Source of the DNA: Armatimonadota bacterium
GTDB taxonomy: Bacteria > Armatimonadota > Fimbriimonadia > Fimbriimonadales > GBS-DC
Length of the DNA stretch: 64,000 bases
Assembly: GCA_030550775.1 (NCBI GenBank)
Contig: JAUQOS010000001.1
Span: forward strand, 19,259-83,258
Reading direction: 5' to 3'
The notes below the pieces were generated by a model. That model worked only from the letters and a program-made list of their open reading frames with translations. It ran no database searches and was not told the DNA's origin. This document shows positions 9,016-32,712 of the stretch, piece after piece. Each line of letters starts with the position of its first letter. The first letter of the stretch is position 1. The translations under genes were made by a program, and so were the position numbers.

Positions 9016-9032
9016 GTATAATACGCTTCGTG
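9016..9032 (+). repeat. Right copy of the 17-bp direct repeat
   Basis: GTATAATACGCTTCGTG. Its terminal GTG (9030) is the most plausible start of the Dop/PafA-family gene. Confidence 0.8.
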
Positions 9033-10743: not shown

Positions 10744-10981
10744 CTACCAACCTCAACATTAGCGCCTTGCTGACAAGCAGAGCTAATGCAGGTCGACTTA
10801 GTCGGCAGCACGGGAACGGCACGCCCCATGAACCATCGCACCAAAAGATGAACAACTAAAGCCGTTCCTGTGCATCATAAGCCTGCTCGTGCAGGTTATG
10901 CAGTGTTAGTATTTTCTCAACGACCCGTTCGCGAGACGCGAACGCTACAAAATAACGAACGGAAAAGACTCGTTTACGACC
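10744..10981 (+). other. Highly structured 238-nt spacer between the UBact gene and prcB
   Basis: Stems seen by eye: CATTAGC..TTGCT gac AAGCA..GCTAATG (10757-10788); GCACGGGAACGGC (10808-10820) pairing with GCCGTTCCTGTGC (10861-10873); CATAAGCCTGC tcgt GCAGGTTATG (10877-10900); CGTTCGCG aga CGCGAACG (10926-10944). Confidence 0.35.
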
Positions 10982-14058: not shown

Positions 14059-17000
14059 TTAGTCGCGGTCGGGATCATAGGGGCTCGGGTAGAAGCGCGG
14101 TTGCAGGGCAGCCCCGTAGATGTTGCCCACGCCGTTGCGCGTGCTGCTCCAGAACAAGAGCAACGCCTCATCCAGACCGCCGTACTGGTCGTTGAATAGG
14201 CTGCGCGAGATATCGCGGAACTCCAAGTTTGGCATTGCCCACAGGTAAAGTTCGTTGGTGGGCAGGTCAATCGGCACAGGTGAGGTGTACTCAGGCTCCG
14301 CGCCCAGCCCGCGTGGCAGGTTGCCTTCATCAATCCAGCGGATGATTTGGATCTCTTCTTGCTCCACGATGCGCCCGTCTGGGGTGCGGGTTAGGTAGCG
14401 CACGCGCACCTGCTTGCCAAGGTCTTGCGCGGTGAAGTAGATGTTGCCGCGTTGCGCATCGTACTCGTAGAAGCCAAGTGCCGCGCCGGGGGCGTTCACG
14501 CCCACAAGCTGCACTGTGGCGTGGTTGGTGCCTTGAAGGAGCGTGGCACTGGCATCCAGCGGCAGCTGTCCGCGAACGGTTAGAATCGGCGCATTTAGCC
14601 GAATGCCTGGGCGCAGGGTCTTGAAGAAGAAACCGCCTGCACTATTGGGGGCGGGGCTGCTGCGTCGGAAGAAGACCCACACGCGATCCACCGTTGGGCG
14701 GTCGTCAGGGCTGCACACGCGGTTGAAGTCGCCCTTGCGCACAGGCGAGTCAGCGAGGCGCGTGGTAGCATGGCGCGGGTTGAGCGTGCGCTGAAACACC
14801 ACACGCACCTGCCCGTAAGTGCCTGCGGAGCCGGGCGCAGGCTCGTTTAGGCGATAAACGCGCGGGCGGTAGGTTACGGTCACGAGATCGCGTGCACGCG
14901 GTGCCATGTCTACAAAGCGTATCGTGCCCGTGGCAGGGTCAACCACAACGCGCCCGCGTGGGACAAGCGTGTTGCCGCTTACCTCGTTGTAGGCAAACAC
15001 CAGCAAGCCCGTTTGGGTGTCAACTGCTGGTTGTTGCAGGCGCAACTGGGCAGGATTGGCAGGGTTGCGCTCCAGCAGGATTGACCTGCCGTTGACCTTG
15101 ATATCTAAGTCTGGGTTGTTGGGGTCGCGGTTCCAGTCGCCAAACAGGGCGACCCAGTCAAGGTGGCGTGTGCGCCACACATTTTGGTTGGGGTCTTTGC
15201 GCGCCACCTCATCGGTGATGGCAGCGATGTAGCGTGGCAGCAGAGCATCGGTGATGGCTTCGCGTGCCTGACGGTCGGTCAAGGGCACTAACCGGCGTGT
15301 GAACGGGTTGATGTAGAAGCGTTGCATAAGCACTTCAGGCTCACTCTGGTCGCCCACGGTGCCCACGAAGAACACATCTGCCAGCAGCACGAAACCACTT
15401 GCCAAGTTGCTGGGGTCAGCTGCCACACGGTAGATGTTCGCGCCGACGCTCTCCACCGAGCGCACGATGCTCGACAGCGGCACGCGCTGTTCCGAGGGCA
15501 GTCGACGCACTGATTGCCAATCCGTAAACAGGTCGTTGGGGGTAGCGATGGTGAAAATACCGCTGCGCCCCGCAGGTGCTGCCACATAGAACAGCCAGTG
15601 TCCAACCCCTGTGATGCCAGTGATAGCAAGGCTGCTACGCGGCACAACGGGGTCCAGTGGCACGGTTTGCGGGTTGCCCAAAGGCAGCCCTGTGGCAGCG
15701 TCGAGGCGCACATAGAACAGCAATTCGTAGCGTTGATTGCGCACCACTACTTCGCCCGTCCAGAAGAGGAACGGCGCGCTGCCGGTGAAGTAGACAAACG
15801 GGCGATGATGTTTGATTGTGGCGATTTCAGATGCGGTCAGCGGGCGGTTCAGCCCCAACGCGGTGGCAAAGAGGGTGCCGTTGGGATCGTTCGGATAGGG
15901 TCCGAACAGTTCGCCCCACCAGCGGTCCGCGGAGGCAGGTTCCCAACCGTTGGTCGCACGCACTCCGTCTTGGTTGCGGTTGATGTTCCAGTTCAGCGTG
16001 GATTTGTACAGGTAGAAGCTGTCGGGACGGTTGGCTGGGTCGAAGCGGTTGCTTGCCCAATAGAGGTGCAGCCTACCCGTGTTGGGGTCGCGGAACGCCG
16101 CGGGGGTGAGGTCGCTGACGCGCAGCGCGTTGGGGGGCGGCACATCATCAATCATTGGGCGAACCCCGCGGTTGGTGCTGCCTGTGAGTTGCGTTTCGCG
16201 CACACGCACCACCAAGCGCATGGGCGGCACCGCAAAGCTCCATCCTTCCTGCACCACGCCTGCGCCCTGATTGGGTGGGCCGTTGTGTTGGTAGGGCGCC
16301 ACGAGCTGCGAATAGACGCCCAACGGTTGGAACGGCGGGATGGCGATTGAAACCAATGGCTTGCGCGGGAGCGGCACTTCCACATTGGCTGGGCGGCGCG
16401 GCGGAATCGCAGGAATGCCCAACACGGTGGCGGTGTAGTCGCCCACCTGCGGCTTCTGTAATACGGGAAACGGTTGGTTGAGGGTGGGCGTCCAGAACGG
16501 GTTCGGTTGGGGCCAGAAGCGCGGATCCAAGGTGCTGACCACCGTCGTCCACACTGGGATGCGCGCGAAGAAGGCTGCAGTATCGGAGTAGAGATACTCC
16601 GTGCCTTGAGGCGTGCCAAACGCTTTGCCCAAGTACACAGGGAACAAGTTGACATTGCCTTCGTTGCGTACGGTGAAGGGCTTCCAGAAGGGCTCAAACA
16701 GCGGGTTGTCGGGGCGGAACAGCGAGCCGGCATTGTTGGCAAACAGCGTGCCCCAGTTGAAACCAAAGCCGCCCGGCAGCGAACCGAAATCAATCGTCTG
16801 CTCTTCCACAAACATCCGCTCGTCAACCCGCACCGCGACGGTGGTGTTGACCACACGGTACGGCTCTGCAAACAGGTTGCGCGTGGCGTTGATGCCTGTG
16901 ATGTTCTCCAAGCGATCAATGCGCCCATTGCCGTTCACATCGTGGTAAATGATGATGCCACCGTCGTAGCCGCCAGGGTTGGCAGGCTGGAAGCGTGGGA

Positions 17001-20000
17001 TATCCACCCGCACGTCGACGCGGGTGCCTGTACCGAACACGGGGCTGGGAGCGCGTTGTAGTTCGGTCGCCCCGCCTGCCAACAGCTGCATGCGTCGTGC
17101 GGGGATGTCGGGATAGTCTGGGCTGGCGTTGCTCGGATAGGTCGGTGGGATTTCCCACGGCAGCATGCGGATGGGCACCTGTCCCGCTTGCCAGGCTAAG
17201 TCATTGGCGAAAGCGCGTGCGAGTATCTGCAACGGCACGGGGTTCTCTGTCTGGAGGCGGCGGCGGTCAAACACCTCAAAGTCGCCTACCACAGTGTTGC
17301 CGTGATCGCCTTGCGCGATCGGTTGCTCGCCCAGCGGGCTGAGGAACCGCACGGGCACGCGCACTGCCGGTCGCGATGGATCGGTTTCGTCGGGGCTATT
17401 GCCGTTGAACAGGTTCGCATTCGCGTCGCCGTTGCCCACCACCGCACCTTGCGCCCCACGCACACCCAACGGGTTCGCGATGCCCACACGCCAACCCGAT
17501 GCGGTCGTGAACTCCACGGGCGGATAGGAGGGCACCTCGGCTCCGCCGCCGGGCGCAGGGCGGTCAACCTCGACTGTTTCACGCCACAAGTCAGCTGTCC
17601 AACCAAACACGCCGTCCACGGATACCTGCAGTTCGTAGGTGCTGCCCGGCGTGTAGAAGTTATTGGCAGACGGCTGAATTGCGAACTCACCTGTGGCGAT
17701 GTAGTCCAGCGTGCTGTCTTCGCGGGGCGGGTTCGGCGTTTGGCGCACTTGCAAGACTTGCTCGGCGCGCGACACGCCTGGCCCAAACAGCTGCACGCGC
17801 ACTTGGCGTGGCTGCGTGCCTTGACGGAAGTTCCATACCACCACATAGAAGCGGTCGCCCCACTCCAGCGCGTCGGGGTAAATCGGGGTGAGTTCGTCGG
17901 GGCGGATGCGTCCGTCGCGCACGGCTTCAAACTCTTCGCGCTTGGTCGTGATGGATACGCGCAGCTTACCGTAGTCGCCTCCGTCTTGGGTTGTGGTGCC
18001 TGTGGGATCGCGGATAATCTCGCCCAGCCCGCTCTCAGGTGCCGCTTGGGCGATGCCCGACACATTGAATGCATAGGCGATGCCGTCGTCATCTGCGGCG
18101 TAGAGCCAGCCATCCAGCACGCCTGGCGAGGCGAACACCGTTTCGCCATACAGATCCCAGCCCTCGAACGCCTTGCCACCGCGGGCGTTAGTGAGTTGGT
18201 CGGCGTGGAGAGCGAGCAGCCGCCCTTCATTCGTGGCAACCACCACCGCTGGGCGTGCTGCTGCAATCTCGTTGCCATCGGCGTCGGTGTCTTGCACATT
18301 CGTGAAGATAGGCGAGCTGAATATCGCACCACCCAACGACTCGCTGATGTAAATCAGATTGCCGTTGTCTGCGTTGAAGGCAATAATGCGCCCAATCTCG
18401 CCCCCGACATAGACGATGTTCGTAGGCGTACCGTTGTAGAGCACGCCAGGCACCACCAGCGGCGAGCTGTAGAAGAAGTTGAACTGCGGCACGCGCGGCG
18501 CATCCACGCGGGGCTGCGCCCACACCAGTTGCCCTGTGGCAGCGTCGACCGCGTATACACGACCGCCACCCAAGCCACCGCTGGTAAAGTACACGCGCCC
18601 CAATGCTACCGCCGGCGTGGAAGTAATCGGTTCAATCGGGAAATCGCCCTCCTTAGGATAAACCCACTCCACGCGCTCATCAACGCTCGTGTTGGGATCA
18701 TCCTCACGGAACGGGTTGAGCGCAATCAGCCGCCCATACAGATTACCGCCTTCCACACTGCCGATGTAGACCAAGCGGGTGCTCGGGTCGTACGCTGGCG
18801 TGGACACGAACGCCGCGTTGGGGCGATTATACTGCCAGAAGAAGTAGCTGTCGGGGTCGTTGGGGTTCAAATCGGTTTTGATCACATACACTGAGCCGGC
18901 AGGGTTGCCGATAACAACGCGGTCATCGCCCACGATTAGGGGCGAGGCGTAGTTAAAGCTGGTAGCGTTGCGCGGCTTCACGATCCAGTAGATTTTCGTC
19001 TGTCCGCGCAGGGTGCCGTTCTCGCCGTCGCCTAATGCGTCAATGGCATACACCGCGCCGTTCTGAGCTGCCACAAACACTACCAAGCGCGTGACGATGG
19101 TGTTGCCGTCGCGGATGCGCACCTGCCCGACCGCTGGCGTGGAGTAGATGCCGCTATCTAAGCCCTCGGCGTCCAACAGCCGAATAGCGTCTGCCACCAC
19201 GCGCTGCGAGCCAAGCACCACATCATCGGGCGAATAGTTGGTGACAGAGATTTCGTAGGTGGTGCCCACGCGCATCTCAAGCGGCACATTGTTGAGGCGC
19301 ACCCACCGTCCGCCAAAGCGCTGATCAACGCGAATGCGCTGCTCGCCCCCTTGATACTCAATCACATATTCGGCAAAGCGGGCGTTCTGCTCGTCCGAAG
19401 GGAACCATGCTTCCACGTAGTAGCGCCCCGTGCGCGGTACACGCACACGCCAGTAGGCACGCTGGATATTGTTCGCGTTATTGGTGGGTGCAATCTCGTA
19501 GTAGCTGGGGCTGTAAGCATCGGCTAAGATGTTGTCTTCTGTGAAGAGCCCTGGCGTGAAGTCAGTGCGACTGTCGTAGATAATGCCTTGAGCTTGGTCG
19601 GGCACATCAGGCAGGCGCAGAGTCCAGCGCACGCGCGCGCCTCGCGTGCCCACAGGGTTTTCAACACAGGTTAGCGTGCCGTTGCCGTTAGCGATATAGA
19701 CCAAGTGGTTGCCTGGGTTGAGTGGGTTTCGGATGGCGACCGGCGACGCCTGAACAGTGCCGTAATCGGGCACAAAGCGCACGGCATCTGCTACCACAAT
19801 CGTAGGCGCATCCAGCGACGGAAACTCGCCGTTTTCCGCCTGGAAGCGATTCGTGAGTGTAATCGTGATTCCATCTGCGCTGCCGTTGTGATAGAAGGAA
19901 CGGTCGCCCAACTGACGCCAACCGCCAACGGTTTGGTCAACGAACTCTGGGTGAACCCCTATGCCGTCGGCGACGATGTACTCGGCGCGTGGCGAGTATT

Positions 20001-20457
20001 GCAGCCGTTGCGAACCGGCGCGGGTGGGCGTAGCAGGCACATACACATAGATGCGATAGTAGCCCGCAGGGAGCGGTCCGCTGCGCCAAGTAAAGGTAGA
20101 ACTCGCGTCAGGGCGCGTGTAGGCATATCGGTAGGGCTCAGTTGTGTTCGGGTCGTCGCGATATGGGTCAATCGCGCTTTCGCCTGCTGTGGGCACAATC
20201 CAGTCGCCCGTGGCGCTGGCAAGGGCAGAGTCGTTATCGATAATCAGCGGCGCGCGCACTGCCTCTAAATCAGGCAGTGTCCATGCCAGCAGCAGGCTCA
20301 CTGCGCTGTTGCGCGCGTTGTCCGTGGTGCCTGTGCGTTGTTCGCTGCCACGATGCGTATGCCAGCTATCTTGCGCCGCAACCAGCGCAAACACGCCAAA
20401 CCACAGTCCTGCAAAAAGTCCGCGCACTGCCGAATTCCAGTTCATTCGCCCTACCAT
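14059..20457 (-). CDS. Giant secreted PilY1-like beta-propeller protein (2132 aa), sixth gene of the pilin operon
   Basis: Signal peptide (LFAGLWFGVFALVAAQD). Two golvesin-C-like modules (aa ~120-230 and ~330-428, ending VVADAVRFV / VVADAIRLL). PQQ/BamB-like blades (STPAVG...GAVYAIDALGDG, GRVYAVDAATGQLVWA, GRIIAFNADNGN, GIAYAFN). The remaining ~1300 aa has nothing I recognise. Confidence 0.8.
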   Translation of the reverse strand: MVGRMNWNSAVRGLFAGLWFGVFALVAAQDSWHTHRGSEQRTGTTDNARNSAVSLLLAWTLPDLEAVRAPLIIDNDSALASATGDWIVPTAGESAIDPYRDDPNTTEPYRYAYTRPDASSTFTWRSGPLPAGYYRIYVYVPATPTRAGSQRLQYSPRAEYIVADGIGVHPEFVDQTVGGWRQLGDRSFYHNGSADGITITLTNRFQAENGEFPSLDAPTIVVADAVRFVPDYGTVQASPVAIRNPLNPGNHLVYIANGNGTLTCVENPVGTRGARVRWTLRLPDVPDQAQGIIYDSRTDFTPGLFTEDNILADAYSPSYYEIAPTNNANNIQRAYWRVRVPRTGRYYVEAWFPSDEQNARFAEYVIEYQGGEQRIRVDQRFGGRWVRLNNVPLEMRVGTTYEISVTNYSPDDVVLGSQRVVADAIRLLDAEGLDSGIYSTPAVGQVRIRDGNTIVTRLVVFVAAQNGAVYAIDALGDGENGTLRGQTKIYWIVKPRNATSFNYASPLIVGDDRVVIGNPAGSVYVIKTDLNPNDPDSYFFWQYNRPNAAFVSTPAYDPSTRLVYIGSVEGGNLYGRLIALNPFREDDPNTSVDERVEWVYPKEGDFPIEPITSTPAVALGRVYFTSGGLGGGRVYAVDAATGQLVWAQPRVDAPRVPQFNFFYSSPLVVPGVLYNGTPTNIVYVGGEIGRIIAFNADNGNLIYISESLGGAIFSSPIFTNVQDTDADGNEIAAARPAVVVATNEGRLLALHADQLTNARGGKAFEGWDLYGETVFASPGVLDGWLYAADDDGIAYAFNVSGIAQAAPESGLGEIIRDPTGTTTQDGGDYGKLRVSITTKREEFEAVRDGRIRPDELTPIYPDALEWGDRFYVVVWNFRQGTQPRQVRVQLFGPGVSRAEQVLQVRQTPNPPREDSTLDYIATGEFAIQPSANNFYTPGSTYELQVSVDGVFGWTADLWRETVEVDRPAPGGGAEVPSYPPVEFTTASGWRVGIANPLGVRGAQGAVVGNGDANANLFNGNSPDETDPSRPAVRVPVRFLSPLGEQPIAQGDHGNTVVGDFEVFDRRRLQTENPVPLQILARAFANDLAWQAGQVPIRMLPWEIPPTYPSNASPDYPDIPARRMQLLAGGATELQRAPSPVFGTGTRVDVRVDIPRFQPANPGGYDGGIIIYHDVNGNGRIDRLENITGINATRNLFAEPYRVVNTTVAVRVDERMFVEEQTIDFGSLPGGFGFNWGTLFANNAGSLFRPDNPLFEPFWKPFTVRNEGNVNLFPVYLGKAFGTPQGTEYLYSDTAAFFARIPVWTTVVSTLDPRFWPQPNPFWTPTLNQPFPVLQKPQVGDYTATVLGIPAIPPRRPANVEVPLPRKPLVSIAIPPFQPLGVYSQLVAPYQHNGPPNQGAGVVQEGWSFAVPPMRLVVRVRETQLTGSTNRGVRPMIDDVPPPNALRVSDLTPAAFRDPNTGRLHLYWASNRFDPANRPDSFYLYKSTLNWNINRNQDGVRATNGWEPASADRWWGELFGPYPNDPNGTLFATALGLNRPLTASEIATIKHHRPFVYFTGSAPFLFWTGEVVVRNQRYELLFYVRLDAATGLPLGNPQTVPLDPVVPRSSLAITGITGVGHWLFYVAAPAGRSGIFTIATPNDLFTDWQSVRRLPSEQRVPLSSIVRSVESVGANIYRVAADPSNLASGFVLLADVFFVGTVGDQSEPEVLMQRFYINPFTRRLVPLTDRQAREAITDALLPRYIAAITDEVARKDPNQNVWRTRHLDWVALFGDWNRDPNNPDLDIKVNGRSILLERNPANPAQLRLQQPAVDTQTGLLVFAYNEVSGNTLVPRGRVVVDPATGTIRFVDMAPRARDLVTVTYRPRVYRLNEPAPGSAGTYGQVRVVFQRTLNPRHATTRLADSPVRKGDFNRVCSPDDRPTVDRVWVFFRRSSPAPNSAGGFFFKTLRPGIRLNAPILTVRGQLPLDASATLLQGTNHATVQLVGVNAPGAALGFYEYDAQRGNIYFTAQDLGKQVRVRYLTRTPDGRIVEQEEIQIIRWIDEGNLPRGLGAEPEYTSPVPIDLPTNELYLWAMPNLEFRDISRSLFNDQYGGLDEALLLFWSSTRNGVGNIYGAALQPRFYPSPYDPDRD

Positions 20458-20460
20458 CGC

Positions 20461-25173: not shown

Positions 25174-25188
25174 CGTCTTACACCTCGC

Positions 25189-27828
25189 TTACGGGCGAAT
25201 ATCGCCGACAAAAATCGGTTTCGGGCACACCGGCAGGCGCGGAATAGGTGGCAGTGCCCTGCCCGGATGTTGCCCTGAAGGGTCTTGAGTCGCATCGTAT
25301 GCCACGCGCAGGGGCTCGGCGTCTACGCGCGGGCGCAAAATCGGGTCATATCGCATAAACAGGTTCACCGCATACTGGCGGGTTCGCTCATCATGGAAAT
25401 ACCGTTGATGCTGCTCTGGGATTTCAAATCGCGAGCTGCCATAGTAGCGTGGGATCCAGCCCCAGCGGCGTAGCCATTCAGTCTGGTCGCCCTGAGCCGC
25501 CGTAAAGTTCTCGGCAATGGAACCGACGATAGTGATCCGAATATCCAGCGGCTCGCCGTAGAACGGAAACTCCTCCGACACCACGCCGGGGGCGCGCTGC
25601 CCTGTGCGCAGGTAGTTCGCCCGTGTGTCCTGCGGGTTAGTGTTGAACCAGTAGCCTGGAATCACAAAGAAGCTGCCCTCTTGGGCAAACAGTGCCGCCT
25701 CGATTCGGATGTCCAGCGGTTGCACGGCAGCCGCGCTCATTAGGTAAGGCGCGTTGCCCGTCGGTAGCTGATAGTTCGCCACATTCGAGAGCGGGTGCAG
25801 TTGCAGCTGCAATAGGTTCGGGATGCCTGGTTCAGGAATCAGCAGGTACTGTGCACCGTTGGGACGCGGCACCAACGGAAGTGCGACTTTCTCGTAGTTC
25901 GGATACACTTGCAGCGGGTTGCCCCCCAGCGTGTAAACGCGCGGGTCTGCCACAACGCCAAACGGATAGTAGGGGTTGTAGCCCGCGTCGTCGAACCACG
26001 CGGGGTTCACCAACAGGTTGATGAACGAGCCGCTGCGTGTGGCGTGGCGCAGGAAGAGCCGAATTGCACCGAAGTTGCCTGTGTATTGCTGAGGGTCAAT
26101 TCCGAAGCTGAACAGTAGGCGCATCGGGCGGTCTGGTAGCACCTCGAAGAAGTAAGGTGCCTCTAGATTGGTGGGGTCGCCCTGAGCTTCCGCTGGGCTG
26201 TCAAAGGTGCGCTGCAAGAACTGCGTGGTGTTCACACACACATAGTCCTTCGCGAGAATCGCTAATGCCGAGTTCTTGTCGCCTTTGACGATGTTGCCTT
26301 CAATATAAGCGGTACCATTGGTGACAATCAGAATTTGTCTGCCTGAAGGGATGCGCCCTTTGATGCGCACATTGCCCTCTGCGTAAATCACGCCGTTGAA
26401 GGGCACATCAAAGGTGCGGTCGTTTTGGGTGATTTCGCTGGTAAGCGTAGGGTCGGTTGGGTCATTCGGGTTGCGGAAGAAGAAGCTCATCGTCTTAAGG
26501 TTGGTGGGACGCCCGGTGGTAGGGTCGAACCACACATCGCGTGGGTCAGCTTGGTTGCGTGTGATGCGGAAGCCCTGAGCGCGAATGGTGCCGTCAGGGT
26601 TAAGGATTTCCACCAGTTCAATGAACGCGCCCGGCGGTTCGTAGAACGGTCCGTTCCAGTATCGCGACTTGCCAGGGTTGAGCCAATCGCTGCGCAAGGT
26701 GTAGCCACCTAACAGGTTGCGGCTCTCTTGTTGGATGTCTTGCGCGTTGTTGATATAGATTCCGCGTCCGTAGCCGTACTGCCCTGTGTTGAACCATGTG
26801 CCGTTGGGGCGTTGGCGCCAGATGCCCGACTCGCGCGTTGCGGCCACATAGCGCGGCAGGTTGGTGGCGGGGTCTACGGTATCCATGCGCGGTGGCTCCA
26901 GGTAGGCGATAGCGCGTGGGTAGCCGTCTGCAGCGGTGAGCGGGCGTCCGTCGCGATACAGCCCGTTGGCAGTCGTGAAATTCGGGTCGCGGCTGGGCGG
27001 CAGGTTGAACACGCCCTGAGGTGTAATCAGTTGCACCGTTGTGTTGTCGCCGTGCACCACCTCGCCTGCTACATAAATTCGCTCGCCGCGTGTGGGGTCA
27101 AGCACAATCCGAACATCGCCGTTGAAGCGCAGGTTGCCGTTCACATAAATCGATCCGCCCCCCATACCAAACTCCGTGATGCCCCCGTCAGGCGGCTCGC
27201 CCAAGATGGTGCGGTATGGTAGCTCGCGCCCTTGCTCATCCAGCAGCCCAATGGTGGGCACGCCCAGCTCCATCAACGTGCCGCGTTGCTCCTTGTTCAT
27301 CACGAAGCGCAGGTAGTCAATGGTGCCGATTTGCACATAGGCAACGCGTTCAGCACGCTGCTCGCGGTCTGCCAACTGGAAGGTCGTGGGGTCGTTCGGG
27401 TCTACCAACCCCACACGCCCGATTGATTCTATCTTTATCACCGGTTGCTGATGCACGGGTCCAGAGGGCTGGTAAGACACGCGAATGAGCGCACGCCCGC
27501 CCTCTAAGTTGAGGCGCGTGAAGCCCCCGGTGCGGTCGGCAGGGTTGTAGGGTTTGAGCCAGAAGTAGTCAGGGTCAGCAGGATTGGTGAGGTTATCGGG
27601 AATCGGTCGCCAGTCGGCACCGAACTCGCTGCGCACCAGCTGGTCAATTGCAAACTGCAAGCCCGATTCGGCAAAGTAGGCGGCGCTGAGCCGTTCGCGT
27701 GCTTGGCGCACATTGATGAGGTTGCGCGCAATTACCGCGATGAACACACCGCCCAAAATCAGTAGGGCAAAGCTCACCAGCAGCGCGACCACCAGCGTCT
27801 GACCGCGTTCCGTTCGTGTGCCTCGCAT
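25189..27828 (-). CDS. PilX-like giant minor pilin (879 aa)
   Basis: N-terminus RGQTLVVALLVSFALLILGGVFIAVIARN...RLSAAYFAESGLQFAIDQL matches the PilX_N pattern (hydrophobic helix, then A-E-x-G). The start is 1 nt after the upstream stop. Confidence 0.75.
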   Translation of the reverse strand: MRGTRTERGQTLVVALLVSFALLILGGVFIAVIARNLINVRQARERLSAAYFAESGLQFAIDQLVRSEFGADWRPIPDNLTNPADPDYFWLKPYNPADRTGGFTRLNLEGGRALIRVSYQPSGPVHQQPVIKIESIGRVGLVDPNDPTTFQLADREQRAERVAYVQIGTIDYLRFVMNKEQRGTLMELGVPTIGLLDEQGRELPYRTILGEPPDGGITEFGMGGGSIYVNGNLRFNGDVRIVLDPTRGERIYVAGEVVHGDNTTVQLITPQGVFNLPPSRDPNFTTANGLYRDGRPLTAADGYPRAIAYLEPPRMDTVDPATNLPRYVAATRESGIWRQRPNGTWFNTGQYGYGRGIYINNAQDIQQESRNLLGGYTLRSDWLNPGKSRYWNGPFYEPPGAFIELVEILNPDGTIRAQGFRITRNQADPRDVWFDPTTGRPTNLKTMSFFFRNPNDPTDPTLTSEITQNDRTFDVPFNGVIYAEGNVRIKGRIPSGRQILIVTNGTAYIEGNIVKGDKNSALAILAKDYVCVNTTQFLQRTFDSPAEAQGDPTNLEAPYFFEVLPDRPMRLLFSFGIDPQQYTGNFGAIRLFLRHATRSGSFINLLVNPAWFDDAGYNPYYPFGVVADPRVYTLGGNPLQVYPNYEKVALPLVPRPNGAQYLLIPEPGIPNLLQLQLHPLSNVANYQLPTGNAPYLMSAAAVQPLDIRIEAALFAQEGSFFVIPGYWFNTNPQDTRANYLRTGQRAPGVVSEEFPFYGEPLDIRITIVGSIAENFTAAQGDQTEWLRRWGWIPRYYGSSRFEIPEQHQRYFHDERTRQYAVNLFMRYDPILRPRVDAEPLRVAYDATQDPSGQHPGRALPPIPRLPVCPKPIFVGDIRP

Positions 27829-27829
27829 C

Positions 27830-29722
27830 TTATCTCCCCCGTACTTGTACGATGTTGGGTGCTTCCAGCTGTGTGGCGACCGAGTAGCTCACGGGACGTT
27901 GCGCCCCGTATAACTTCAGCCCCACCTTGAGGTTCAGCAAGCGTCGAGTGTAGTAATCGGCTACATAGGTGTCGGAGGGCAGATTGAAGCGGTAGTAGAA
28001 AGTCACCACCACTTGCGAGTTGGGTGGCAGTGGGGTTTGCGGATCGCTATGGAACTCGATGTAGCCGCGCAGCAGTTGCGGGGTAAAGCCCATTGTGGTT
28101 ATCACCTCTTGGTAGGGCGCGGCATCCTCATAAAGAATGCGGTATTGGTTCGGACCGGGTGTCGCCAACGCCGACGACACGCGCTGGTAGCGTATTGGCT
28201 TACCGAAGTTGGGACCAGGGCGTTGGTCGGGTCCAATAACTACTTCCGACCCGGGCACCAGTGAGGCGGTGGGTAGCACAAGATGGTTTTGGCGCGGGTC
28301 GTCAATCTGCCCATCGCCGTCTAAATCCAGCAACGATACAAAGCGGCGGGCGTTTGGCGCATCGTCGGGGTCACGAAAAGCGAGATTGAAACGCCCGTTG
28401 ATGGTAGTGGTGTCGGGGGCTGGATCGCGGTCGGGTGGGAGGTAGACGCCCGTCTTGAAGCTCACCCCTTGCACGGGATAGTGGAACCACCACGGCAGCG
28501 CCATATCAACCAACCCCGCTTCGAGGTTGACATAAAACGCCATCGGCTCCGCTTGTGTGAAGTAGTTGAGGTTGGGGTTCAGCCAGCCCGGCTGGGGCGT
28601 GCCCGTATGCACCATGCGCTGGAGCAAAGTAAGGTTAGCTACCCACTCATCGGTGGGGCGCTCATTCGGCACGGCACGATAATAGCGAATGTACCACTGC
28701 CCATCGTTCGGGTTGTAGGCGACATAGAAATAGCGCAGAGGCTGGTTTTGTCGCAGCGCGTCGGGGCGGCTGCGGAACACCACCAAGCGGAACGAGTTGG
28801 GGTCTATATCCCACAATCCCAGCGGGAACCGCACTTGGAGAGGGGCGGCACCGGCGCCCTCATCGCCCAAAGTCTCGGTTTCAATCGGCACACCCATCTG
28901 GTTCACGACCAGCGCGGGCGAAAGCTGTACCAACGGCTCCACGCGCGGGTTGCCTTCAGCGGTGTAGGTGACATTCACCATATCCACGATGCCCAGCGGC
29001 ACGATGGGTTTCGCCACGCGCCGCCACGCCGCGCGCCGTTGGGGGTTCGGGCTGTAGAAAAAGTCGGGGTCAAACAAATCGTCGAGGCTATCAAAGAGTT
29101 CAGGGTTCAGCACCCAGCGGTTGCCCTGACGCACATACAGACGGAATTCGGCGCGGTACAAGACGGCGTAGTTCTCGCGGGCAGTGGCTTCAATCAGCCC
29201 CGCTTCGTCAGGGTTGAGGTAGGGCCGCTCGTTGTCCATCAGCCCGATGAAATAGCGAATGATGGTGCGCCCGGGCGCCACTGGAATCGCAAGCTCGGCG
29301 TCTGGTTCGCCGCTGCGCCCAACAGGAATGTCGGAGGTGGGATCGTTTGATTCCTGCGACGGGTCGCCATAGGCAGGGGCGACCATATCAATAATCGCGT
29401 GGCGCATCGGAACAAAAACCACTTGCCCTTGCCCATTCGCGGGGCGGGTGCGCACAGGCAGGTTCACAATGCGGTCGGCGCTGTCAAACACAAATGCGGC
29501 GCGCTTGAGGTCGTTGCTGATCTGGTTGAGCGCAAGGCGTACCGCGTCTTGTGCTTGGGCTTGTGCTTGTCCCTGGCGTGTGAGCCGAAAGCCCTGCACC
29601 AGTGGAATCAGTAATAACCCAAGCAGGATGGCGGTGATGGCAATCACCACCAACAGCTCCACCAGCGTGAATCCTGTATTCCGCGCCTGCCGATACCGCA
29701 TCGCCGTTTTTGCCACCTCCAT
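27830..29722 (-). CDS. PilW-like giant minor pilin (630 aa) with prepilin-type N-terminal methylation motif
   Basis: ...ARNTG|FTLVELLVVIAITAILLGLLLIP, then AQDAVRLALNQISNDLKRAAFVF. The more likely start is ATG 29701 (MRYRQARNTG leader), preceded by GGAGGTGG. Confidence 0.8.
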   Translation of the reverse strand: MEVAKTAMRYRQARNTGFTLVELLVVIAITAILLGLLLIPLVQGFRLTRQGQAQAQAQDAVRLALNQISNDLKRAAFVFDSADRIVNLPVRTRPANGQGQVVFVPMRHAIIDMVAPAYGDPSQESNDPTSDIPVGRSGEPDAELAIPVAPGRTIIRYFIGLMDNERPYLNPDEAGLIEATARENYAVLYRAEFRLYVRQGNRWVLNPELFDSLDDLFDPDFFYSPNPQRRAAWRRVAKPIVPLGIVDMVNVTYTAEGNPRVEPLVQLSPALVVNQMGVPIETETLGDEGAGAAPLQVRFPLGLWDIDPNSFRLVVFRSRPDALRQNQPLRYFYVAYNPNDGQWYIRYYRAVPNERPTDEWVANLTLLQRMVHTGTPQPGWLNPNLNYFTQAEPMAFYVNLEAGLVDMALPWWFHYPVQGVSFKTGVYLPPDRDPAPDTTTINGRFNLAFRDPDDAPNARRFVSLLDLDGDGQIDDPRQNHLVLPTASLVPGSEVVIGPDQRPGPNFGKPIRYQRVSSALATPGPNQYRILYEDAAPYQEVITTMGFTPQLLRGYIEFHSDPQTPLPPNSQVVVTFYYRFNLPSDTYVADYYTRRLLNLKVGLKLYGAQRPVSYSVATQLEAPNIVQVRGR

Positions 29723-29758
29723 TCGGTAGACTTACTCCTTTGAGGGTAGGTTCCAGTT

Positions 29759-31588
29759 TCAGTCGCCTACGGGCAACAGTACATCGTAATCGGTGCGCGA
29801 GCGTCGACCGGGCGGCTCGAAGGTCACGCGTACCTTGAGCGATAGCCCCTGGATGCCCCGAATCGCCTGTCCGGTCACGCCCGGGTCCCAACGCAGGGCG
29901 TCACGATGGGCGGTTTGCAAATCAATATACACAAAGCCCGTCTCGTCGGGGCGATCGCTGATTCGAAACACACCATTGGTGCCGCGGCGTGTGCGCTGTT
30001 CGCCTGTACGCTCATCCCGTGCCACATACCAATACTCGCGCAGCAGCACGGTCTTGCCCGCCTCACTGCGGCTGAAGTAGAGGCGTCGGGTGCGCTCGCC
30101 CTCCTCGCCTTGATAGGCACGCTCCCAATCGTACCAACAGGTGTCTACCGTAATAGCGCGCGGGTCTGCCACCAAGTCGTAGCGGGCAGCAGCTTTTTGC
30201 ACAGAAACCGCCCAGTTTTCGTGCACCTGATACAGCACTAAAATCTTGCGCCCGCGCATGTTAGGATTACGAATTTCAATCACGCCCGTGCCGTAATCAA
30301 TAGTGGCCTGCAGATTGGGCAACAGGGCTGCGCCCGTGCCAAGATTGAGTTGGGTGCCTTGTTTGAAGTAAGCAGCGCGCCCTGTGAGCATATCCACAAT
30401 CACCAAATCCGCCTCAGATTCGGGCGTTTGATAGCCCACATCACGCCCAAAGCCCAGCCCCTTGTAGGTGGTCTGGTCGTCCAGCACATCGCCAAACTGT
30501 TTGAGGTCGGCAAACGCGAGGCGAATGCGCCCGTTCTGTGGCACCGTAAACTCCTCGCGGATAACTCTCCAGTCGTGCACGAAGTAGCTTACATAAGCTT
30601 GGAGTGGGCGCAACCCGCGCCAGAACCGCTCATAGTAACCCGAGGCTGCGGGGTTAATCACAATGGTGCCCGTCAGCGGGTTCAACACCTTATATTGGTA
30701 AGGATCGTCTGGATCCCACGCTTGGTCAGGCTCCAGCTCAATAAAGGCGCGGGCAGCCGTATCCGAATAGGGCACCACGCCCAAGAAGCCCGGCAGGTTG
30801 CGCACGGGTGTATCGCCCAGCGTCAGGTCGAACCAGCGGGGCACAGGCGGGTCTGCGGGTTGTAGCTCAATTTCGTTGGTAACCAATCGGCTGATGAGGC
30901 GGTTGTTCTCCACCAGCAGCACGCTGAACTCCACTTGATAGCGGATGGGGCGTGTACGCAGCGGACGCAGCAGCACTTGCGCCGTCTCGTAGTCGATTCC
31001 ATACTCAAACAAGCGGATCTCGCGGAATTGGAAGTCAGAATCGAGCACGATGCGGCGCATCGGTCCGCTGGTGACGCTTAGATAGTAGGCATAGCGGCCA
31101 CCGTCGGCGCGGTGAGGCTTTTGAGCGATGGGCGAGAACAGCGTGGTGTACACGATGCCTTCGGTTAGCTCGTCTTGCGAGCCAAGTGTGGGACCAGGCA
31201 AGCCTAAGGCAATGCGCTCGCCCACAATGCGACGGAACCGATTCACCCCGCTGGCGTATTCTCTCGGAAAGTTCTCAGGCAGGTTTGGCTGTACGTCCAG
31301 GTCGTTGGGGTAAATCGTGGGATCGACCACCAGTTCCGCCTCGCCCGTACGGAAATCGTAGCTGACAGGTGCAATCAGGCGCGGCAGGTTCTCGGCGCGC
31401 GTGCGCAATCGCTCCATCTCCTGTTGGGCAAGGCGTGTAGCAGCATCGCCCTGCCCCGAGCGTTTCAGCGCCAAGAAGCCGCTCGGGTACAGGCGAATGA
31501 ACGCCAAGATGGCGATCGCCAAAATCCCAATGGTCACCAGCACCTCGACTAGCGAGGCGCCTCGTTGCAAACGACCCATGCCTACCAT
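29759..31588 (-). CDS. PilV-like giant minor pilin (609 aa)
   Basis: MVGMGRLQRG|ASLVEVLVTIGILAIAILAFIRL..., then DAATRLAQQEMERLR. This is the PilV-type N-terminus (G, x, S-L-V/I-E-V-L-V). Confidence 0.75.
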   Translation of the reverse strand: MVGMGRLQRGASLVEVLVTIGILAIAILAFIRLYPSGFLALKRSGQGDAATRLAQQEMERLRTRAENLPRLIAPVSYDFRTGEAELVVDPTIYPNDLDVQPNLPENFPREYASGVNRFRRIVGERIALGLPGPTLGSQDELTEGIVYTTLFSPIAQKPHRADGGRYAYYLSVTSGPMRRIVLDSDFQFREIRLFEYGIDYETAQVLLRPLRTRPIRYQVEFSVLLVENNRLISRLVTNEIELQPADPPVPRWFDLTLGDTPVRNLPGFLGVVPYSDTAARAFIELEPDQAWDPDDPYQYKVLNPLTGTIVINPAASGYYERFWRGLRPLQAYVSYFVHDWRVIREEFTVPQNGRIRLAFADLKQFGDVLDDQTTYKGLGFGRDVGYQTPESEADLVIVDMLTGRAAYFKQGTQLNLGTGAALLPNLQATIDYGTGVIEIRNPNMRGRKILVLYQVHENWAVSVQKAAARYDLVADPRAITVDTCWYDWERAYQGEEGERTRRLYFSRSEAGKTVLLREYWYVARDERTGEQRTRRGTNGVFRISDRPDETGFVYIDLQTAHRDALRWDPGVTGQAIRGIQGLSLKVRVTFEPPGRRSRTDYDVLLPVGD

Positions 31589-31664
31589 CGGTTATCGCCC
31601 CTTCGTACTTGCACGGCGACCAGTAGCCGTGCGACTACAACACGCCTGCTGTGCGTTGTGCCGC

Positions 31665-32477
31665 CTATGGGCGCATCAGGTAAGGCGACTCGAACATCTG
31701 ACGCGAGTCGACCACCTTCACATTGCCCGTTAGGAACAGCACAATGTCGTTTTTCGCGCGTTGCGGAATATCACCATCATATGAGCGATGATAAGTGCAC
31801 CAAGTAACCACAGCAGTCGTGTCGGGTGCACGATAACCCAGTTGGCGTGGGTTGTCGCTGCCTTTGGGACCTATGTCGCCATCGTAGTAGCCCTGACCGT
31901 ACTGGGTACCGCTACGCTGATTCTCCTGTTGGTTTAGCTCTTGATCCGACCAAAACAGCGTGTAGCGCAGCTCGTACACAAACGAGTTGCCGCGTGGCAC
32001 GCGCCCTACCGAATAACTATCGTAGGCGTAGAAGCAAACTTGTGGCGCGTTCGGTAGCCCCGTGCCAAAACGCACGGGCGTGGTGCCTTGCCCATAGAGG
32101 GCATGCCCGCGCGGATAGTATGCCTGCACGATTGTGCGCTTGTCGCTAATGGGGTTGTTCGGGCAGTAGAAAATCTCGTCGTTCTTGAGATAGCTCCCCA
32201 GTGGTTTCGGGGCACGGTCAAACGGCACCGCCGCTTGCTGGTTACAAGTCAGGTTGCCGTTCGCATCCACCGCATACGCGCCCAACACAAAGGGGTATGC
32301 ACGGTAGTCTTCCTTGTATTGTTGTAGCGCAAGATAAATTTGGCTTAGGTTTGAGATGCAGCGGCTGCGTCGCGCATTCTCGCGCACCGTGCCCGCAACA
32401 GGAAAAATAATCGCCGCCAAAATAGCGATTATCGCGATCACCGTCAACAACTCCACCAGAGTAAAACCTCGCCGCAT
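31665..32477 (-). CDS. Prepilin-type pilin/pseudopilin (270 aa), first gene of the operon
   Basis: MRRG|[23 protein letters not shown] (Gly-1, Phe+1, Glu+5). The GspG/DUF1559-like body has a degenerate C-terminal tail ([15 protein letters not shown]). Confidence 0.85.
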
Positions 32478-32630
32478 GGTTGCGCCCCTTCGTCCTCACC
32501 GCTTTAGACTGCGGTTGGGTTCTTTTCGGTTCCCTATGATTATGACACGTGCCCCCAATTTCCTGCATGGTTTTAGGTTGCGTTGCCCTGAGAACTAACA
32601 AAAGTTGCTCCCTATCTGTATCGAACGTGC

Positions 32631-32712
32631 AGGATTCTTCGCTGCGCTCGGGGTGACAAACGGCTCGGCTCCAGCTAACCCTTGTGATTCCGAGCCGAAG
32701 GCGAGGAATCTC
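32631..32712. repeat. Family-B palindromic intergenic repeat
   Basis: aggattcTTCGCTGCGCTCGGGGTGAC - 26 nt - GTGATTCCGAGCCGAAGGCGAGGAATCtc. The arms form an imperfect inverted repeat. Confidence 0.6.

Follow-up and report, generated by a model that had tools for sequence, protein, structure and literature searches.

Organization of the six-gene locus

Six minus-strand open reading frames, g1 to g6, follow one another in the window, the whole 64,000-nucleotide stretch of DNA that was analyzed, with gaps from g1 to g6 of 76, 36, 1, 15, and 3 nt as computed from the ORF coordinates (Table 1). A preliminary description of this DNA had reported this layout together with the gene sizes and N-terminal sequences, and the ORF coordinates and translations contain all of these as claimed. 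Its guess of an armatimonadotal origin agrees with the names attached to homologues. A GAAGGGG ribosome-binding site can be read 7 nt ahead of the g1 ATG, and it lies in a non-coding leader in which a consensus scan found no significant sigma-70 match. Past the leader, a GC-rich hairpin sits just beyond the stop of the upstream DinB-like ORF (32729–33205). Judged from its sequence, this hairpin is likely the terminator of the preceding gene, marking the upstream boundary of the operon; a consensus terminator scan did not report it.

A motif scan placed prepilin-like N-termini at the starts of g1–g4, and two further matches of the scan fall inside non-pilin sequence. Genes for a pilus motor or platform, a prepilin peptidase, or a secretin are missing from the window, as the preliminary description had stated: tblastn with the PilB, PilT, PilC, and PilD proteins of a relative gave no match, and the 30 remaining large ORFs, when scanned with Pfam, fell into housekeeping or unrelated families, apart from two with no match.

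Table 1. Features of the six-gene locus, in window positions.
Feature	Position	Strand	Size or basis
g1	31665–32477	-	270 aa
g2	29759–31588	-	609 aa
g3	27830–29722	-	630 aa
g4	25189–27828	-	879 aa
g5	20461–25173	-	1570 aa
g6	14059–20457	-	2132 aa
GC-rich hairpin (cggctcgg...ccgagccg) then TTTGT	32661–32697	-	read from sequence
Non-coding leader and putative promoter region of the operon	32478–32660	-	inferred from sequence
g4 C-terminal motif LPPxPRLPVCPxxxΦxGD/E (residues 859–879)	25192–25254	-	family alignment
g5 DUF4159-like (GATase1-like) domain (residues 98–188)	24610–24882	-	Pfam
g5 extreme C-terminal tail (…SYPLRKPSSADRGGF)	20464–20508	-	tail alignment
g6 second Golvesin_C domain (residues 307–427)	19177–19539	-	Pfam
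g6 8-bladed PQQ/BamB-type beta-propeller (residues ~460–797)	18067–19080	-	Pfam and PDB profile search

Four pilin-like proteins

The first protein, g1, begins MRRG↓FTLVELL... (arrow, cleavage site) and is a prepilin of the DUF1559 / H-X(n)-DG type, with profile matches to N_methyl (E 6e-7), SBP_bac_10/DUF1559 (E 3e-9), and the GspG N-terminus (E 3e-9). Its first 30 residues are almost unchanged among homologues, with Pro22 (mature numbering) invariant, and in relatives it is the first gene after pilD. The earlier reading of g1 as a FimU-like minor pilin stands as to its pilin nature and is undecided as to a minor or major role: g1 is either a fibre subunit or a FimU/GspH-like adapter, and it may be the fibre-forming (major) pilin instead of a FimU-like one.

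In the PilV/GspI position, g2 (…LQRG↓ASLVEVL…) matches the TIGR02523 PilV N-terminus (E 5e-6), the Verru_Chthon-B N-terminus, and, just under Pfam's cut-off, N_methyl (E 9e-4). In the PilW/GspJ position, g3 (…RNTG↓FTLVELL…) matches N_methyl (E 4e-7) and the HpsC N-terminal 72 residues (E 9e-9). When the family profiles of both proteins were compared with the PDB, pilin N-termini alone were recovered, and the globular parts (~570 aa in g2, ~590 aa in g3) matched no solved fold. Because g2, g3, and g4 are kept over their full length at 25–40% identity across the phylum, their extra mass is, on sequence grounds, core to the family and not a variable add-on.

Glu5 is invariant in the families of g1 (n = 29), g2 (n = 33), and g3 (n = 27, where F1 and T2 are invariant as well), whereas g4 (…TERG↓QTLVVALL) has no Glu5 while retaining Gly at the cleavage site, G(−1) and Q(+1) being conserved in at least 90% of its homologues (n = 46). 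Together with the N-terminal signals and profiles, this pattern bears out the H-I-J-K (FimU-PilV-PilW-PilX) order claimed for g1–g4; the same H/I/J/K Glu5 pattern has been described for PilX in a cyanobacterial preprint (bioRxiv 10.64898/2026.02.12.705559).

No Pfam match was found for g4, and neither the PilX_N nor the T2SSK profile matched the window protein. Its AF2 model (pLDDT 88.7, pTM 0.88) contains a 57-residue N-terminal helix (residues 10–66), four strands (104–165) forming a sheet, an insertion of ~700 aa made up of beta-solenoid and jelly-roll, and finally a well-placed C-terminal strand. Foldseek matched the model to CBM28/CBM6/CBM4 jelly-rolls and, at rank 3, to ComZ (6qvi), the latter weakly (E 3.6e-3, probability 0.33). 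The C-terminal motif of g4 is nearly invariant phylum-wide (invariant columns L859, P860, P863, L865, P866, and V867) and includes strand 873–876; the last two blocks of the model have pLDDT values of 94 and 79. With the strand topology read from the DSSP string of the model, this motif may supply the strand that closes the pilin sheet in cis. As modeled, g4 is a cap-type (PilX/GspK/ComZ-class) pilin-like protein. Its earlier designation as PilX-type thus holds for the cap-pilin class, by the missing Glu5 and the AF2 fold, and fails for the PilX_N profile, which matched only 2 of the 46 family members, at E 0.046.

It is highly improbable that the hydrophobic N-termini are ordinary Sec signal-anchors on proteins unrelated to pilins. 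Such a reading could draw on the globular parts of g2 and g3, which match no pilin profile or solved structure, and on g4, which matches no family, but it is opposed by G↓(F/A)(T/S)L(V/I)E with an invariant Glu5 in three families, by significant N_methyl matches, by the pilin-type helix plus sheet of the g4 model, and by the PilD and pilus motor genes that adjoin the cassette in 39 loci.

Two exported propeller proteins

Both remaining proteins start with a Sec-type signal peptide (...VSWA↓DG in g5, ...LVAA↓QD in g6). In g5, a DUF4159 domain is combined with two propellers, one PQQ-like and carrying insertions, the other of NHL type, and with a conserved tail; the propeller assignment holds at the level of family and model only. 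The DUF4159 E value is 8e-4 for g5 itself and falls as low as 1.8e-8 among relatives; among 25 diverse homologues, DUF4159 was detected in 23, NHL in 11, and PQQ_2 in 7, and a PDB profile search matched Pizza6/NHL and BamB. The AF2 model of residues 371–1570 (pLDDT 76.5) is all-beta, and Foldseek related it to EMC1, CPSF160, sGDH, Sema, and double-propeller proteins. Structure prediction, which the preliminary description had proposed, gave a pilin-type helix and sheet in g4 and a propeller-like fold in g5, with the PilY1 structure 3HX6 absent from the top 50 fold matches of the latter.

In g6, PQQ_2 scores 33.6 bits against a cut-off of 27.6, and there are two Golvesin_C beta-sandwich domains (E 4e-26; two stretches, 92 bits in all). 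Golvesin_C is present in all 20 homologues and PQQ_2 in 19, and a PDB profile search matched Cake/PQQ propellers (E 5e-63) as well as BamB. The first Golvesin_C copy probably lies around residues 100–230, as placed by the repeated features …VVADAVRFV and …VVADAIRLL. About 1300 aa of g6 match no family in the profile search; its C-terminus is conserved (…LFWSSTRNGxxDIYxxAxQPRF…).

PQQ/BamB propellers had been claimed for both giants and were found directly in g6 (PQQ_2), in g5 only through homologues and the model. Their proposed likeness to PilY1 is retained in position, Sec export, and propellers. Membership of the PilY1/PilC family was rejected for g5 and for g6, since no member tested of either gave a PF05567 match.

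The extreme C-terminal tail of g5, conserved phylum-wide, has the consensus [ST]xx[LIM]xxPx[FSC][AS][DE]R-x(0-3)-COOH. Scored on 32 representatives less than 60% identical to each other, its conservation is 0.59 versus a protein mean of 0.37 (rank 102 of 1559 sequence windows), and the last 16 residues have pLDDT <50 when modeled alone. The PilC plug is likewise reported to be disordered when modeled alone (bioRxiv 10.64898/2026.09.18.752573). By this analogy, the g5 tail is a candidate PilC/PilY1-type 'plug' strand.

Conservation and neighborhood in relatives

A search for the six-gene synteny found the g1–g6 order consistent in all 81 related loci, whose carriers are apparently all Armatimonadota. 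Among the 57 loci that hold g1–g5, PilC and PilD lie immediately upstream in 39, with PilB and PilT ahead of them wherever the flank reaches. A g6 homologue was detected in 41 of the 81 loci, many flanks stopping before or within g6. In one locus (L085), the genes directly downstream of the cassette encode PilM (E 6.5e-50), a protein weakly matching PilP, and a secretin N-terminus of the STN/GspD-N0 type. The PilB of relatives has an MshEN+T2SSE architecture (type_IV_pilB, 654 bits), and their PilD is a Peptidase_A24 protein. These neighborhoods support the proposed link to type IV pili and the co-conservation of two giant propeller proteins in the PilY1 position.

Because of this synteny and the linkage to PilB, PilT, PilC, and PilD (in one locus to PilM, weak PilP, and a secretin N-terminus), we regard the cassette as probably the pilin/tip ('priming complex') module of a type IVa pilus from an armatimonadotal (Fimbriimonadales-like) lineage, with the motor genes separated in this clade. 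What sets it apart is mainly size, each part exceeding its textbook counterpart several-fold.

Alternatively, the locus could encode a T2SS-like pseudopilus without an extended pilus, in which g1 is a GspG-like major pseudopilin, g2–g4 a GspI/J/K-like tip, and g5 and g6, instead of belonging to the tip, are cargo or periplasmic partners driven through the secretin; we consider this unlikely. Among profiles, g1 scores best against the GspG N-terminus, and some g4 homologues carry the NCBI names 'GspH family' or 'PulJ/GspJ family'. In relatives, the ATPase and platform proteins match GspE/GspF nearly as well as PilB/PilC, and an in-cis closing strand, as the g4 model suggests, is the solution of T2SS GspK. 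Sec-exported giants encoded beside pseudopilins would also fit substrates, and Denise et al. 2019 assigned some Armatimonadetes systems to T2SS. However, the best matches remain PilB and a Thermus-type PilC, and the cluster of relatives includes a bona fide PilT retraction ATPase (pilT_fam, 519 bits versus a cut-off of 319), which T2SSs lack. PilM and the weak PilP match follow the cassette in L085, no GspC/L/M family is recorded beside it in annotated loci, a conserved disordered tail in g5 suits a tip-docking protein and not a T2SS substrate, and fimbriae have been observed in the phylum, on the cultured relative Fimbriimonas ginsengisoli (PMC4072686).

A further alternative, which we judge rather unlikely, is that g1–g4 form an ordinary priming module while g5 and g6 share its transcript but function apart from it, as proteins that are secreted or associated with the outer membrane and that bind or degrade polysaccharide, for instance; the conserved g5 tail would then be a signal for sorting or anchoring. 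Wherever the flank is long enough, however, g5 comes directly after g4, even at 23–30% identity and across the classes of the phylum, and synteny so tight over such divergence usually points to physical interaction. Within the pilus cluster of L085, g5 and g6 stand between g4 and pilM, and the 3-nt and 15-nt gaps suggest translational coupling. Against these points stand the missing PilY1 domain in both proteins, the wide occurrence of Golvesin_C, PQQ/NHL propellers, and DUF4159 outside pilus systems, and an opposite-strand gene that separates g6 from g5 in locus L001. Moreover, cyanobacteria with a beta-solenoid PilX generally lack PilY1 and have been proposed to need none, and g4 appears in its model to close its own sheet.

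A proposed route to the pilus tip

For a type IVa tip module, we envisage that g1–g4 would enter the inner membrane, where prepilin peptidase would cleave them behind the conserved Gly. Judging by gene order, Glu5 pattern, and the modeled fold of g4, g2 would pair with g3 and g4 would cap the pair, like the Glu5-less GspK, PilX, and ComZ. The g2-g3-g4 complex could then nucleate the filament, with PilC as platform and PilB as ATPase, and end at the pilus tip, g1 joining next as adapter or fibre subunit. From the secondary-structure order and confidence values, g4 would close its own pilin sheet with the C-terminal strand past the ~700-residue insertion, as in ComZ and cyanobacterial PilX. g5, and probably g6, would be exported by Sec and meet the complex in the periplasm, where g5 may dock through its conserved disordered C-terminal tail by beta-strand addition, like the last 10–12 residues of PilC/PilY1. 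The tip would thereby present propeller, Golvesin_C, and CBM-like surfaces for attachment to polysaccharide or other surfaces, and PilT would retract the fibre.

Two counterpoints apply to this scheme. Closure of the g4 sheet in cis may leave the published trans-complementation site unavailable to the g5 tail. In addition, a folded g2–g6 tip would comprise ~5,800 residues; nothing near this size is known to pass a secretin, and the ComZ authors already treated ~60 Å as a limit, so that surface display needs explaining.

Comparison with known systems

As in type IVa minor-pilin loci, a pilin gene and genes in the PilV, PilW, and PilX positions precede the gene for a giant beta-propeller protein exported by Sec, the first three pilins have Glu5 and the fourth does not, and the PilB/PilT/PilC/PilD machine is found, here in relatives. 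The pilin-like proteins are 3–4 times longer than in type IVa models, the minor pilins of P. aeruginosa measuring ~170–270 aa, and the claim that every component greatly exceeds its proteobacterial models is upheld. Core minor pilins with a tip adhesin are known as FimU-PilV-PilW-PilX-PilY1 in P. aeruginosa, PilH-I-J-K plus PilC in Neisseria, and the M. xanthus clusters (PMC7541494, PMC13533445, bioRxiv 10.64898/2026.09.18.752573). Like PilC/PilY1, g5 ends in a short conserved segment that comes out disordered if modeled by itself, but g5 and g6 lack the PF05567/IPR008707 propeller, there are two giants instead of one, the domain order differs (the g6 propeller lies near the N-terminus), and g4 seems to supply its own closing strand.

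The order also recalls GspH-GspI-GspJ-GspK of the T2SS, with a GspG/GspH-like N-terminus in g1 and a GspK-like cap subunit that lacks Glu5 and would close its sheet in cis around an inserted domain. Unlike in the T2SS, PilT accompanies the cassette in relatives (motor genes upstream in 39 of 57 loci), PilM and a weak PilP match occur in one locus, sizes exceed those of the T2SS tip 3–4 times, and two giant co-conserved proteins follow.

In the Verru_Chthon cassette of Verrucomicrobia (proteins A–D), three prepilin-type proteins likewise accompany one very large protein, and the N-termini of g1, g2, and g3 match models D, B, and C, respectively (TIGR02596, TIGR02598, TIGR02599 set). However, these matches span only the first 30–60 residues, at 14–25 bits versus cut-offs of 51–256, and g4, g5, and g6 have no NCBIfam match, the protein A model included.

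The fourth protein has counterparts in the PilA1-PilA2-PilA3-ComZ locus of Thermus thermophilus (ComZ structure 6QVI; PMC6561018) and in cyanobacterial PilX/HpsA, whose hosts, like this one, belong to Terrabacteria. ComZ and cyanobacterial PilX/HpsA carry a beta-solenoid between the penultimate and last strands of a GspK-like domain (PMC6561018, bioRxiv 10.64898/2026.02.12.705559), and in the g4 model a bulky beta-solenoid similarly interrupts the pilin domain, which would force a tip position. In sequence, the HpsC profile is matched by the N-terminus of g3, but nothing reached a curated cut-off for ComZ or HpsA-D. Compared with ComZ (a 507-residue chain), g4 is larger and has a CBM-like jelly-roll in addition, giant size extends here to the proteins in the PilV and PilW positions, and the cassette has two proteins in the PilY1 position, which cyanobacteria generally leave empty.

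[quoted passage not shown] The tail docking predicted here by analogy would resemble theirs, while g5 and g6 are larger, have other domains, and show no detectable sequence relationship to them. The preliminary description had found nothing recognizable in the extra mass and no characterized system with this architecture; both statements were too strong, as the g4 architecture is known from Thermus ComZ and cyanobacterial PilX/HpsA, and large tip proteins outside the PilY1 family, such as MshQ and CpaL, have been described too.

Layout and borders of the cassette

The six minus-strand genes of the cassette, g1 to g6, have exactly the sizes (270, 609, 630, 879, 1570, and 2132 aa) and gaps (76, 36, 1, 15, and 3 nt) that the preliminary description attributed to them. 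About 180 nt of non-coding sequence separate g1 from the hairpin that follows the DinB-like ORF, and on the strength of this arrangement the transcription unit plausibly starts in the stretch 5' of g1. Scans for consensus promoters and terminators around the g1 leader returned background levels only. The g1-g2 spacer was considered as a terminator or attenuator, which would favor g1 as an abundant major pilin, and was rejected: its fold scored z = -0.44 against shuffled sequence, and the consensus scan stood at background. At the downstream end, g7 was evaluated as a seventh operon member; its product is possibly an LptD-like outer-membrane protein, judging from its weak matches, and we place it outside the unit because a 63%-identical relative carries isocitrate dehydrogenase there.

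Coordinates of the cassette genes and of neighboring features in the window
Feature	Position	Strand	Remarks
Pup ligase, then two proteasome-subunit genes	8862-12531	+	Pup ligase PF03136, E 8e-157
g7	12534-14036	-	500-aa ORF, 22 nt downstream of g6; weak DUF3769 and LptC-like matches
g6	14059-20457	-	
g5	20461-25173	-	
g4	25189-27828	-	PilX/GspK position
g3	27830-29722	-	PilW/GspJ position
g2	29759-31588	-	PilV/GspI position
g1-g2 spacer	31589-31664	-	two 7-bp hairpins: acaacgc…gcgttgt, gcacggc…gccgtgc
g1	31665-32477	-	
Hairpin	32661-32697	-	GC-rich hairpin then TTTGT, directly 3' of upstream DinB-like ORF; read from sequence
Giant WD40 protein	35708-40114	-	1468 aa; many WD40 repeats (several propellers) and an Ig_Rha78A_N domain

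The WD40 protein, a further giant with propellers, is encoded on the cassette's strand at a distance of 3 kb upstream, with plus-strand G6PD and CAP-domain genes and the minus-strand DinB-like gene in between. On the other side of the cassette, the Pup ligase and proteasome-subunit genes point to a Pup-proteasome system in this organism; as annotated, the Pup-ligase ORF shares ~150 nt with the DNA-methylase ORF before it, so that its real start codon probably lies downstream of the annotated one.

Pilin-like proteins g1, g2, and g3

A motif scan placed prepilin-type N-termini at the starts of g1, g2, g3, and g4, with two further matches inside non-pilin sequence. The g1 product begins MRRG/FTLVELL (the slash separating residues -1 and +1) and matches N_methyl (PF07963/TIGR02532) above the Pfam cut-off (E 6e-7), in addition to DUF1559/SBP_bac_10 and the GspG N-terminus. 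N_methyl is likewise matched above the Pfam cut-off by g3 (…NTG/FTLVELL, E 4e-7) and weakly by g2 (…LQRG/ASLVEVL, 19.2 bits against a cut-off of 21.2), which also matches the PilV and Verru_Chthon-B N-termini. Neither protein reaches the full-length NCBIfam cut-offs for Hps or Verru_Chthon families: g3 scores 35 bits against HpsC (cut-off 200), over the N-terminal 72 residues only, and 25 bits against Verru_Chthon cassette C (cut-off 256), and g2 scores 25 bits against cassette B (cut-off 51). When the g2 and g3 family profiles were compared with PDB sequences, only pilin N-termini were matched. The signals have the build of a class III signal peptide, with a basic leader running to Gly, a hydrophobic stretch of ~20 residues, and Glu at +5, and in alignments of divergent homologues (33 for g2) Glu5 is invariant in the g1, g2, and g3 families. 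We regard the possibility that the N-termini of g1 to g4 are not pilin signals at all as highly improbable.

In the g1 family, the alignment further shows that Pro is invariant at position 22 of the mature protein and that the first 30 residues hardly vary, features that we take to resemble those of fibre-forming subunits; g1 could be the major pilin instead of a FimU-like adapter. Relatives carry a Peptidase_A24 gene directly upstream of g1, while the window contains none. In five Chthonomonadales/Fimbriimonadales loci (L003, L050, L066, L067, and L068), two g1-like pilin genes stand in tandem between pilD and g2; one copy may encode the fibre subunit and the second the adapter.

Conservation and pilus gene context

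The g4 family gave 497 matches in a word-indexed search, 1018 representatives of 50%-identity clusters in an exhaustive representative search (511 at E≤1e-30), and 316 matching stretches in a genome set with a single genome for each GTDB species. Judged by the names of its members, the family is confined to Armatimonadota, and among the best 150 of the representative matches to the g4 profile, all of them strong, none formed a bridge to a named family in another phylum. Proteins g2, g3, and g4 can be aligned full-length across the phylum. Synteny bears out the proposal that the genes belong together: the g1-g2-g3-g4-g5(-g6) order is never broken in 81 non-redundant loci, 57 of which hold g1 to g5 complete. 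Among the carriers is the cultured species Chthonomonas calidirosea, represented by a MAG (L049).

The window itself holds no pilus ATPase, platform, peptidase, or secretin gene, as had been stated from its sequence; tblastn with a relative's PilB, PilT, PilC, and PilD was empty, and a scan of 30 flanking ORFs gave housekeeping or unrelated genes, with two ORFs matching nothing. In 39 of the 57 complete loci, PilC and PilD lie immediately upstream of the cassette, and PilT and PilB come before them wherever the flank extends far enough. The 18 complete loci that do not have both PilC and PilD upstream belong mostly to the window's clade (55-84% identity to g4), in which the cassette stands alone. 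A representative motor-linked locus, L001, contains PilB (MshEN+T2SSE; type_IV_pilB, 654 bits), PilT (pilT_fam, 519 bits against a cut-off of 319), PilC with a Thermus-type best match, and Peptidase_A24. In another related locus, L085, PilM (E 6.5e-50) comes directly after the g6 homologue, and behind it lie two ORFs of ~270 aa, a weak PilP match, and a secretin N-terminus (STN, E 1.6e-10) truncated by the contig end, which suggests that in some lineages the cassette is embedded in a complete type IVa pilus cluster. A T2SS-like pseudopilus, with g5 and g6 as its cargo, is an unlikely reading, given that PilT is part of the relatives' cluster, that PilM and not GspL stands behind the cassette in L085, and that no GspC, GspL, or GspM family is recorded near the cassette in the annotated loci. 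Our preferred reading, which we consider probable, is that the cassette is the pilin/tip-priming module of an Armatimonadota type IVa pilus.

Several loci carry labels that call for care. L085 (JASNGF010000019.1, 1-21417, GCA_030163865.1), with g3-, g4-, g5-, and g6-like genes, is labelled Kamptonema cortianum; because its g4 homologue is 59% identical to a g4-family member and the named members are all Armatimonadota, this cyanobacterial label probably reflects a mis-binned contig. We likewise suspect mis-binning of the 'Synechococcus sp. RC10B2' g5 homologues (63% identity) and of the 'Sedimentisphaerales' locus L065. The MAG SKW30 (JAOAFW01) has two g4 paralogues on different contigs (L029 and L034), 76% and 40% identical to the window g4, which represent either two cassettes in some genomes, one free-standing and one perhaps motor-linked, or a bin of two Armatimonadota populations.

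The probable cap-type protein g4

Fourth in the H-I-J-K order, g4 has the N-terminus G/QTL(V/I)(V/I)A, with Val at +5 in the window protein; Gly(-1)-Gln(+1) is present in at least 90% of family members, and Glu5 is lacking. Absence of Glu5 marks the terminal cap subunit PilX (bioRxiv 10.64898/2026.02.12.705559). The succession from g1 to g4 of three proteins with Glu5 and one that lacks it thus follows H-I-J-K logic. The g4 protein had no match in Pfam (E≤1), including PilX_N (PF14341) and T2SSK, or in NCBIfam, and PilX_N was found in only 2 of 46 g4 homologues (E 0.046). No match was returned by the g4 family profile against PDB sequences, and g4 had no exact entry in the gene-position index.

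An AlphaFold2 model of g4, built with 46 homologues, is confident (pLDDT 88.7, pTM 0.88). It begins with a 57-residue helix (residues 10-66), followed by strands at 104-108, 111-120, 130-139, and 158-165, as read from the DSSP string, and by ~700 residues of beta structure, in part short-stranded and solenoid-like and in part long-stranded and sandwich-like. The C-terminal segment is also modelled with confidence (pLDDT 94 and 79), its last strand spanning 873-876, and the terminal 21 residues, LPPxPRLPVCPxxxΦxGD/E, hardly vary throughout the phylum. Foldseek comparison of the model with the PDB returned CBM28/CBM6/CBM4 and Cry-domain-III jelly-rolls, with the Thermus competence pilin ComZ at rank 3 as a weak match (E 3.6e-3, probability 0.33). 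In ComZ, an inserted beta-solenoid separates the penultimate strand of a GspK-like pilin domain from its last strand (PMC6561018), a plan reported to be common to all cyanobacterial PilX proteins, HpsA included (bioRxiv 10.64898/2026.02.12.705559).

The giant proteins g5 and g6

Both g5 and g6 start with Sec-type signal peptides, and g5, which begins 15 nt after g4, has an SPI-like N-terminus and occupies the place of a large Sec-exported non-pilin protein directly behind the PilX/PilK-position gene. Its domains are DUF4159 (GATase1-like), present in 23 of 25 divergent homologues, a propeller of the PQQ-like type, and an NHL-type propeller at the C-terminal end; conservation is highest in the N-terminal domain and in this last propeller. 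In g6, two copies of Golvesin_C accompany an 8-bladed PQQ/BamB-type propeller (residues ~460-800), and the other ~1300 residues match no family. NCBIfam searches with g4's two giant neighbors, as with g4, matched no family. Homologue searches with g5 and g6 returned mostly close relatives, and the AlphaFold2 model of g5 residues 371-1570, from which distant homologues taken from related loci were left out, is all-beta with a pLDDT of 76.5. Its Foldseek matches are the double-propeller proteins EMC1 and CPSF160, together with sGDH and Sema.

The giants had been described as PilY1-like. PF05567 (PilY1/PilC, IPR008707) is not matched by the window proteins at E≤1, by 25 g5 homologues at E≤0.1, or by 20 g6 homologues at E≤0.01. 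PDB profile searches with g5 and g6 returned BamB, PQQ, and NHL propellers and not 3HX6, which is also outside the top 50 Foldseek matches, and a profile of close g5 homologues gave no match to PDB sequences. The likeness to PilY1 accordingly holds for position and general build, and does not extend to membership of the PilY1/PilC family.

In a rival reading, g1 to g4 form an ordinary priming module and the two giants behind it are functionally separate. That reading is improbable: g5 is next to g4 in every locus whose flank reaches past g4, an adjacency unbroken at 25% identity, and the giants lie inside the pilus cluster in L085. The g5-g6 junction is not fixed across the phylum, as L001 has a 408-aa gene without family match on the opposite strand between the two homologues (17570-18796, minus strand; 70% identity in L051).

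A conserved tail on g5

The g5 proteins end in the motif [ST]xx[LIM]xxPx[FSC][AS][DE]R plus 0-3 residues (in the window, SYPLRKPSSADRGGF), which is retained in homologues only 23-30% identical. Conservation of the tail is 0.59 against a protein mean of 0.37, ranking 102 of 1559 windows (32 representatives below 60% identity), and the last 16 residues are modelled with pLDDT below 50. Two studies from 2026 show that the last 10-12 residues of PilC/PilY1 are similarly disordered when modelled alone and enter PilK by beta-strand addition, and that this strand is needed for tip localization and pilus biogenesis; in GspK and CpaL the equivalent strand is supplied in cis, and for MshQ supply in trans is predicted (PMC13533445; bioRxiv 10.64898/2026.09.18.752573). 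By this comparison, the g5 tail is a good candidate for a PilC/PilY1-type plug. The conserved g6 C-terminus, …LFWSSTRNGxxDIYxxAxQPRF…, resembles a blade of a propeller more than it does a free tail.

A proposed tip assembly

If the cassette is indeed a tip-priming module, a g2-g3-g4 complex would nucleate the fibre and end at the pilus tip, with g1 as adapter or fibre subunit; g5, and probably g6, would be tip proteins recruited in the periplasm, presenting carbohydrate-binding-like and propeller surfaces. A bolder version, which we offer tentatively and hold to be less likely true than false, is that the Armatimonadota tip is unlike any described: a structure of ~0.6 MDa in which each of the three core minor pilins has a conserved globular part 570-800 residues long and two PilY1-unrelated giants (170 and 230 kDa) are held by a newly evolved C-terminal docking peptide ([ST]xxLxxPx[FS]A[DE]R). 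Were this so, g5 would be the founder of a second, independent family of plug-anchored tip adhesins. In either version, a tip of ~5,800 residues would raise the question of how it passes the outer-membrane secretin or is assembled beyond it. A g4 sheet closed in cis would in turn raise the question of where the g5 tail binds.

Comparison with known systems

Nearly everything known about type IV filaments comes from Proteobacteria, Firmicutes, Thermus, and a small number of cyanobacteria. Armatimonadota are under-studied, and four of the families described here, currently named 'hypothetical', 'GspH family', 'PulJ/GspJ family', 'DUF4159 protein', or 'BamB', could be re-annotated. The enlarged PilV-, PilW-, and PilX-position proteins also provide a test of ideas on the size limit for secretin passage. 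In PilC/PilY1, the C-terminal strand of 10-12 residues licenses pilus assembly and keeps the adhesin on the tip (PMC13533445; bioRxiv 10.64898/2026.09.18.752573). Should the g5 tail dock in the same way, beta-strand addition would be a general solution used with different adhesin scaffolds, and the motif would supply a simple sequence signature for tip proteins in other phyla. Our literature searches on the cassette in Armatimonadota and on DUF1559 pilins turned up no description of it; the Fimbriimonas genome paper counted 79 PulG-like genes and noted fimbriae, and nothing more (PMC4072686).

The view that this architecture has no known counterpart is overstated; it has clear precedents. The cassette shares order and logic with the proteobacterial FimU-PilVWX-PilY1 and PilHIJK-PilC systems and its cap logic with GspHIJK; Thermus ComZ and cyanobacterial PilX/HpsA have an architecture that g4 appears to share; and MshQ and CpaL are tip proteins of large size outside the PilY1 family that have C-terminal strands. 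The Verru_Chthon cassette is analogous but has no relationship to g1-g6 past the N-termini. The new element is how the parts are combined: PilV- and PilW-position proteins of ~600 aa conserved full-length, a cap pilin of ~900 aa, two co-conserved giants of new families, and a conserved tail motif on one of them.
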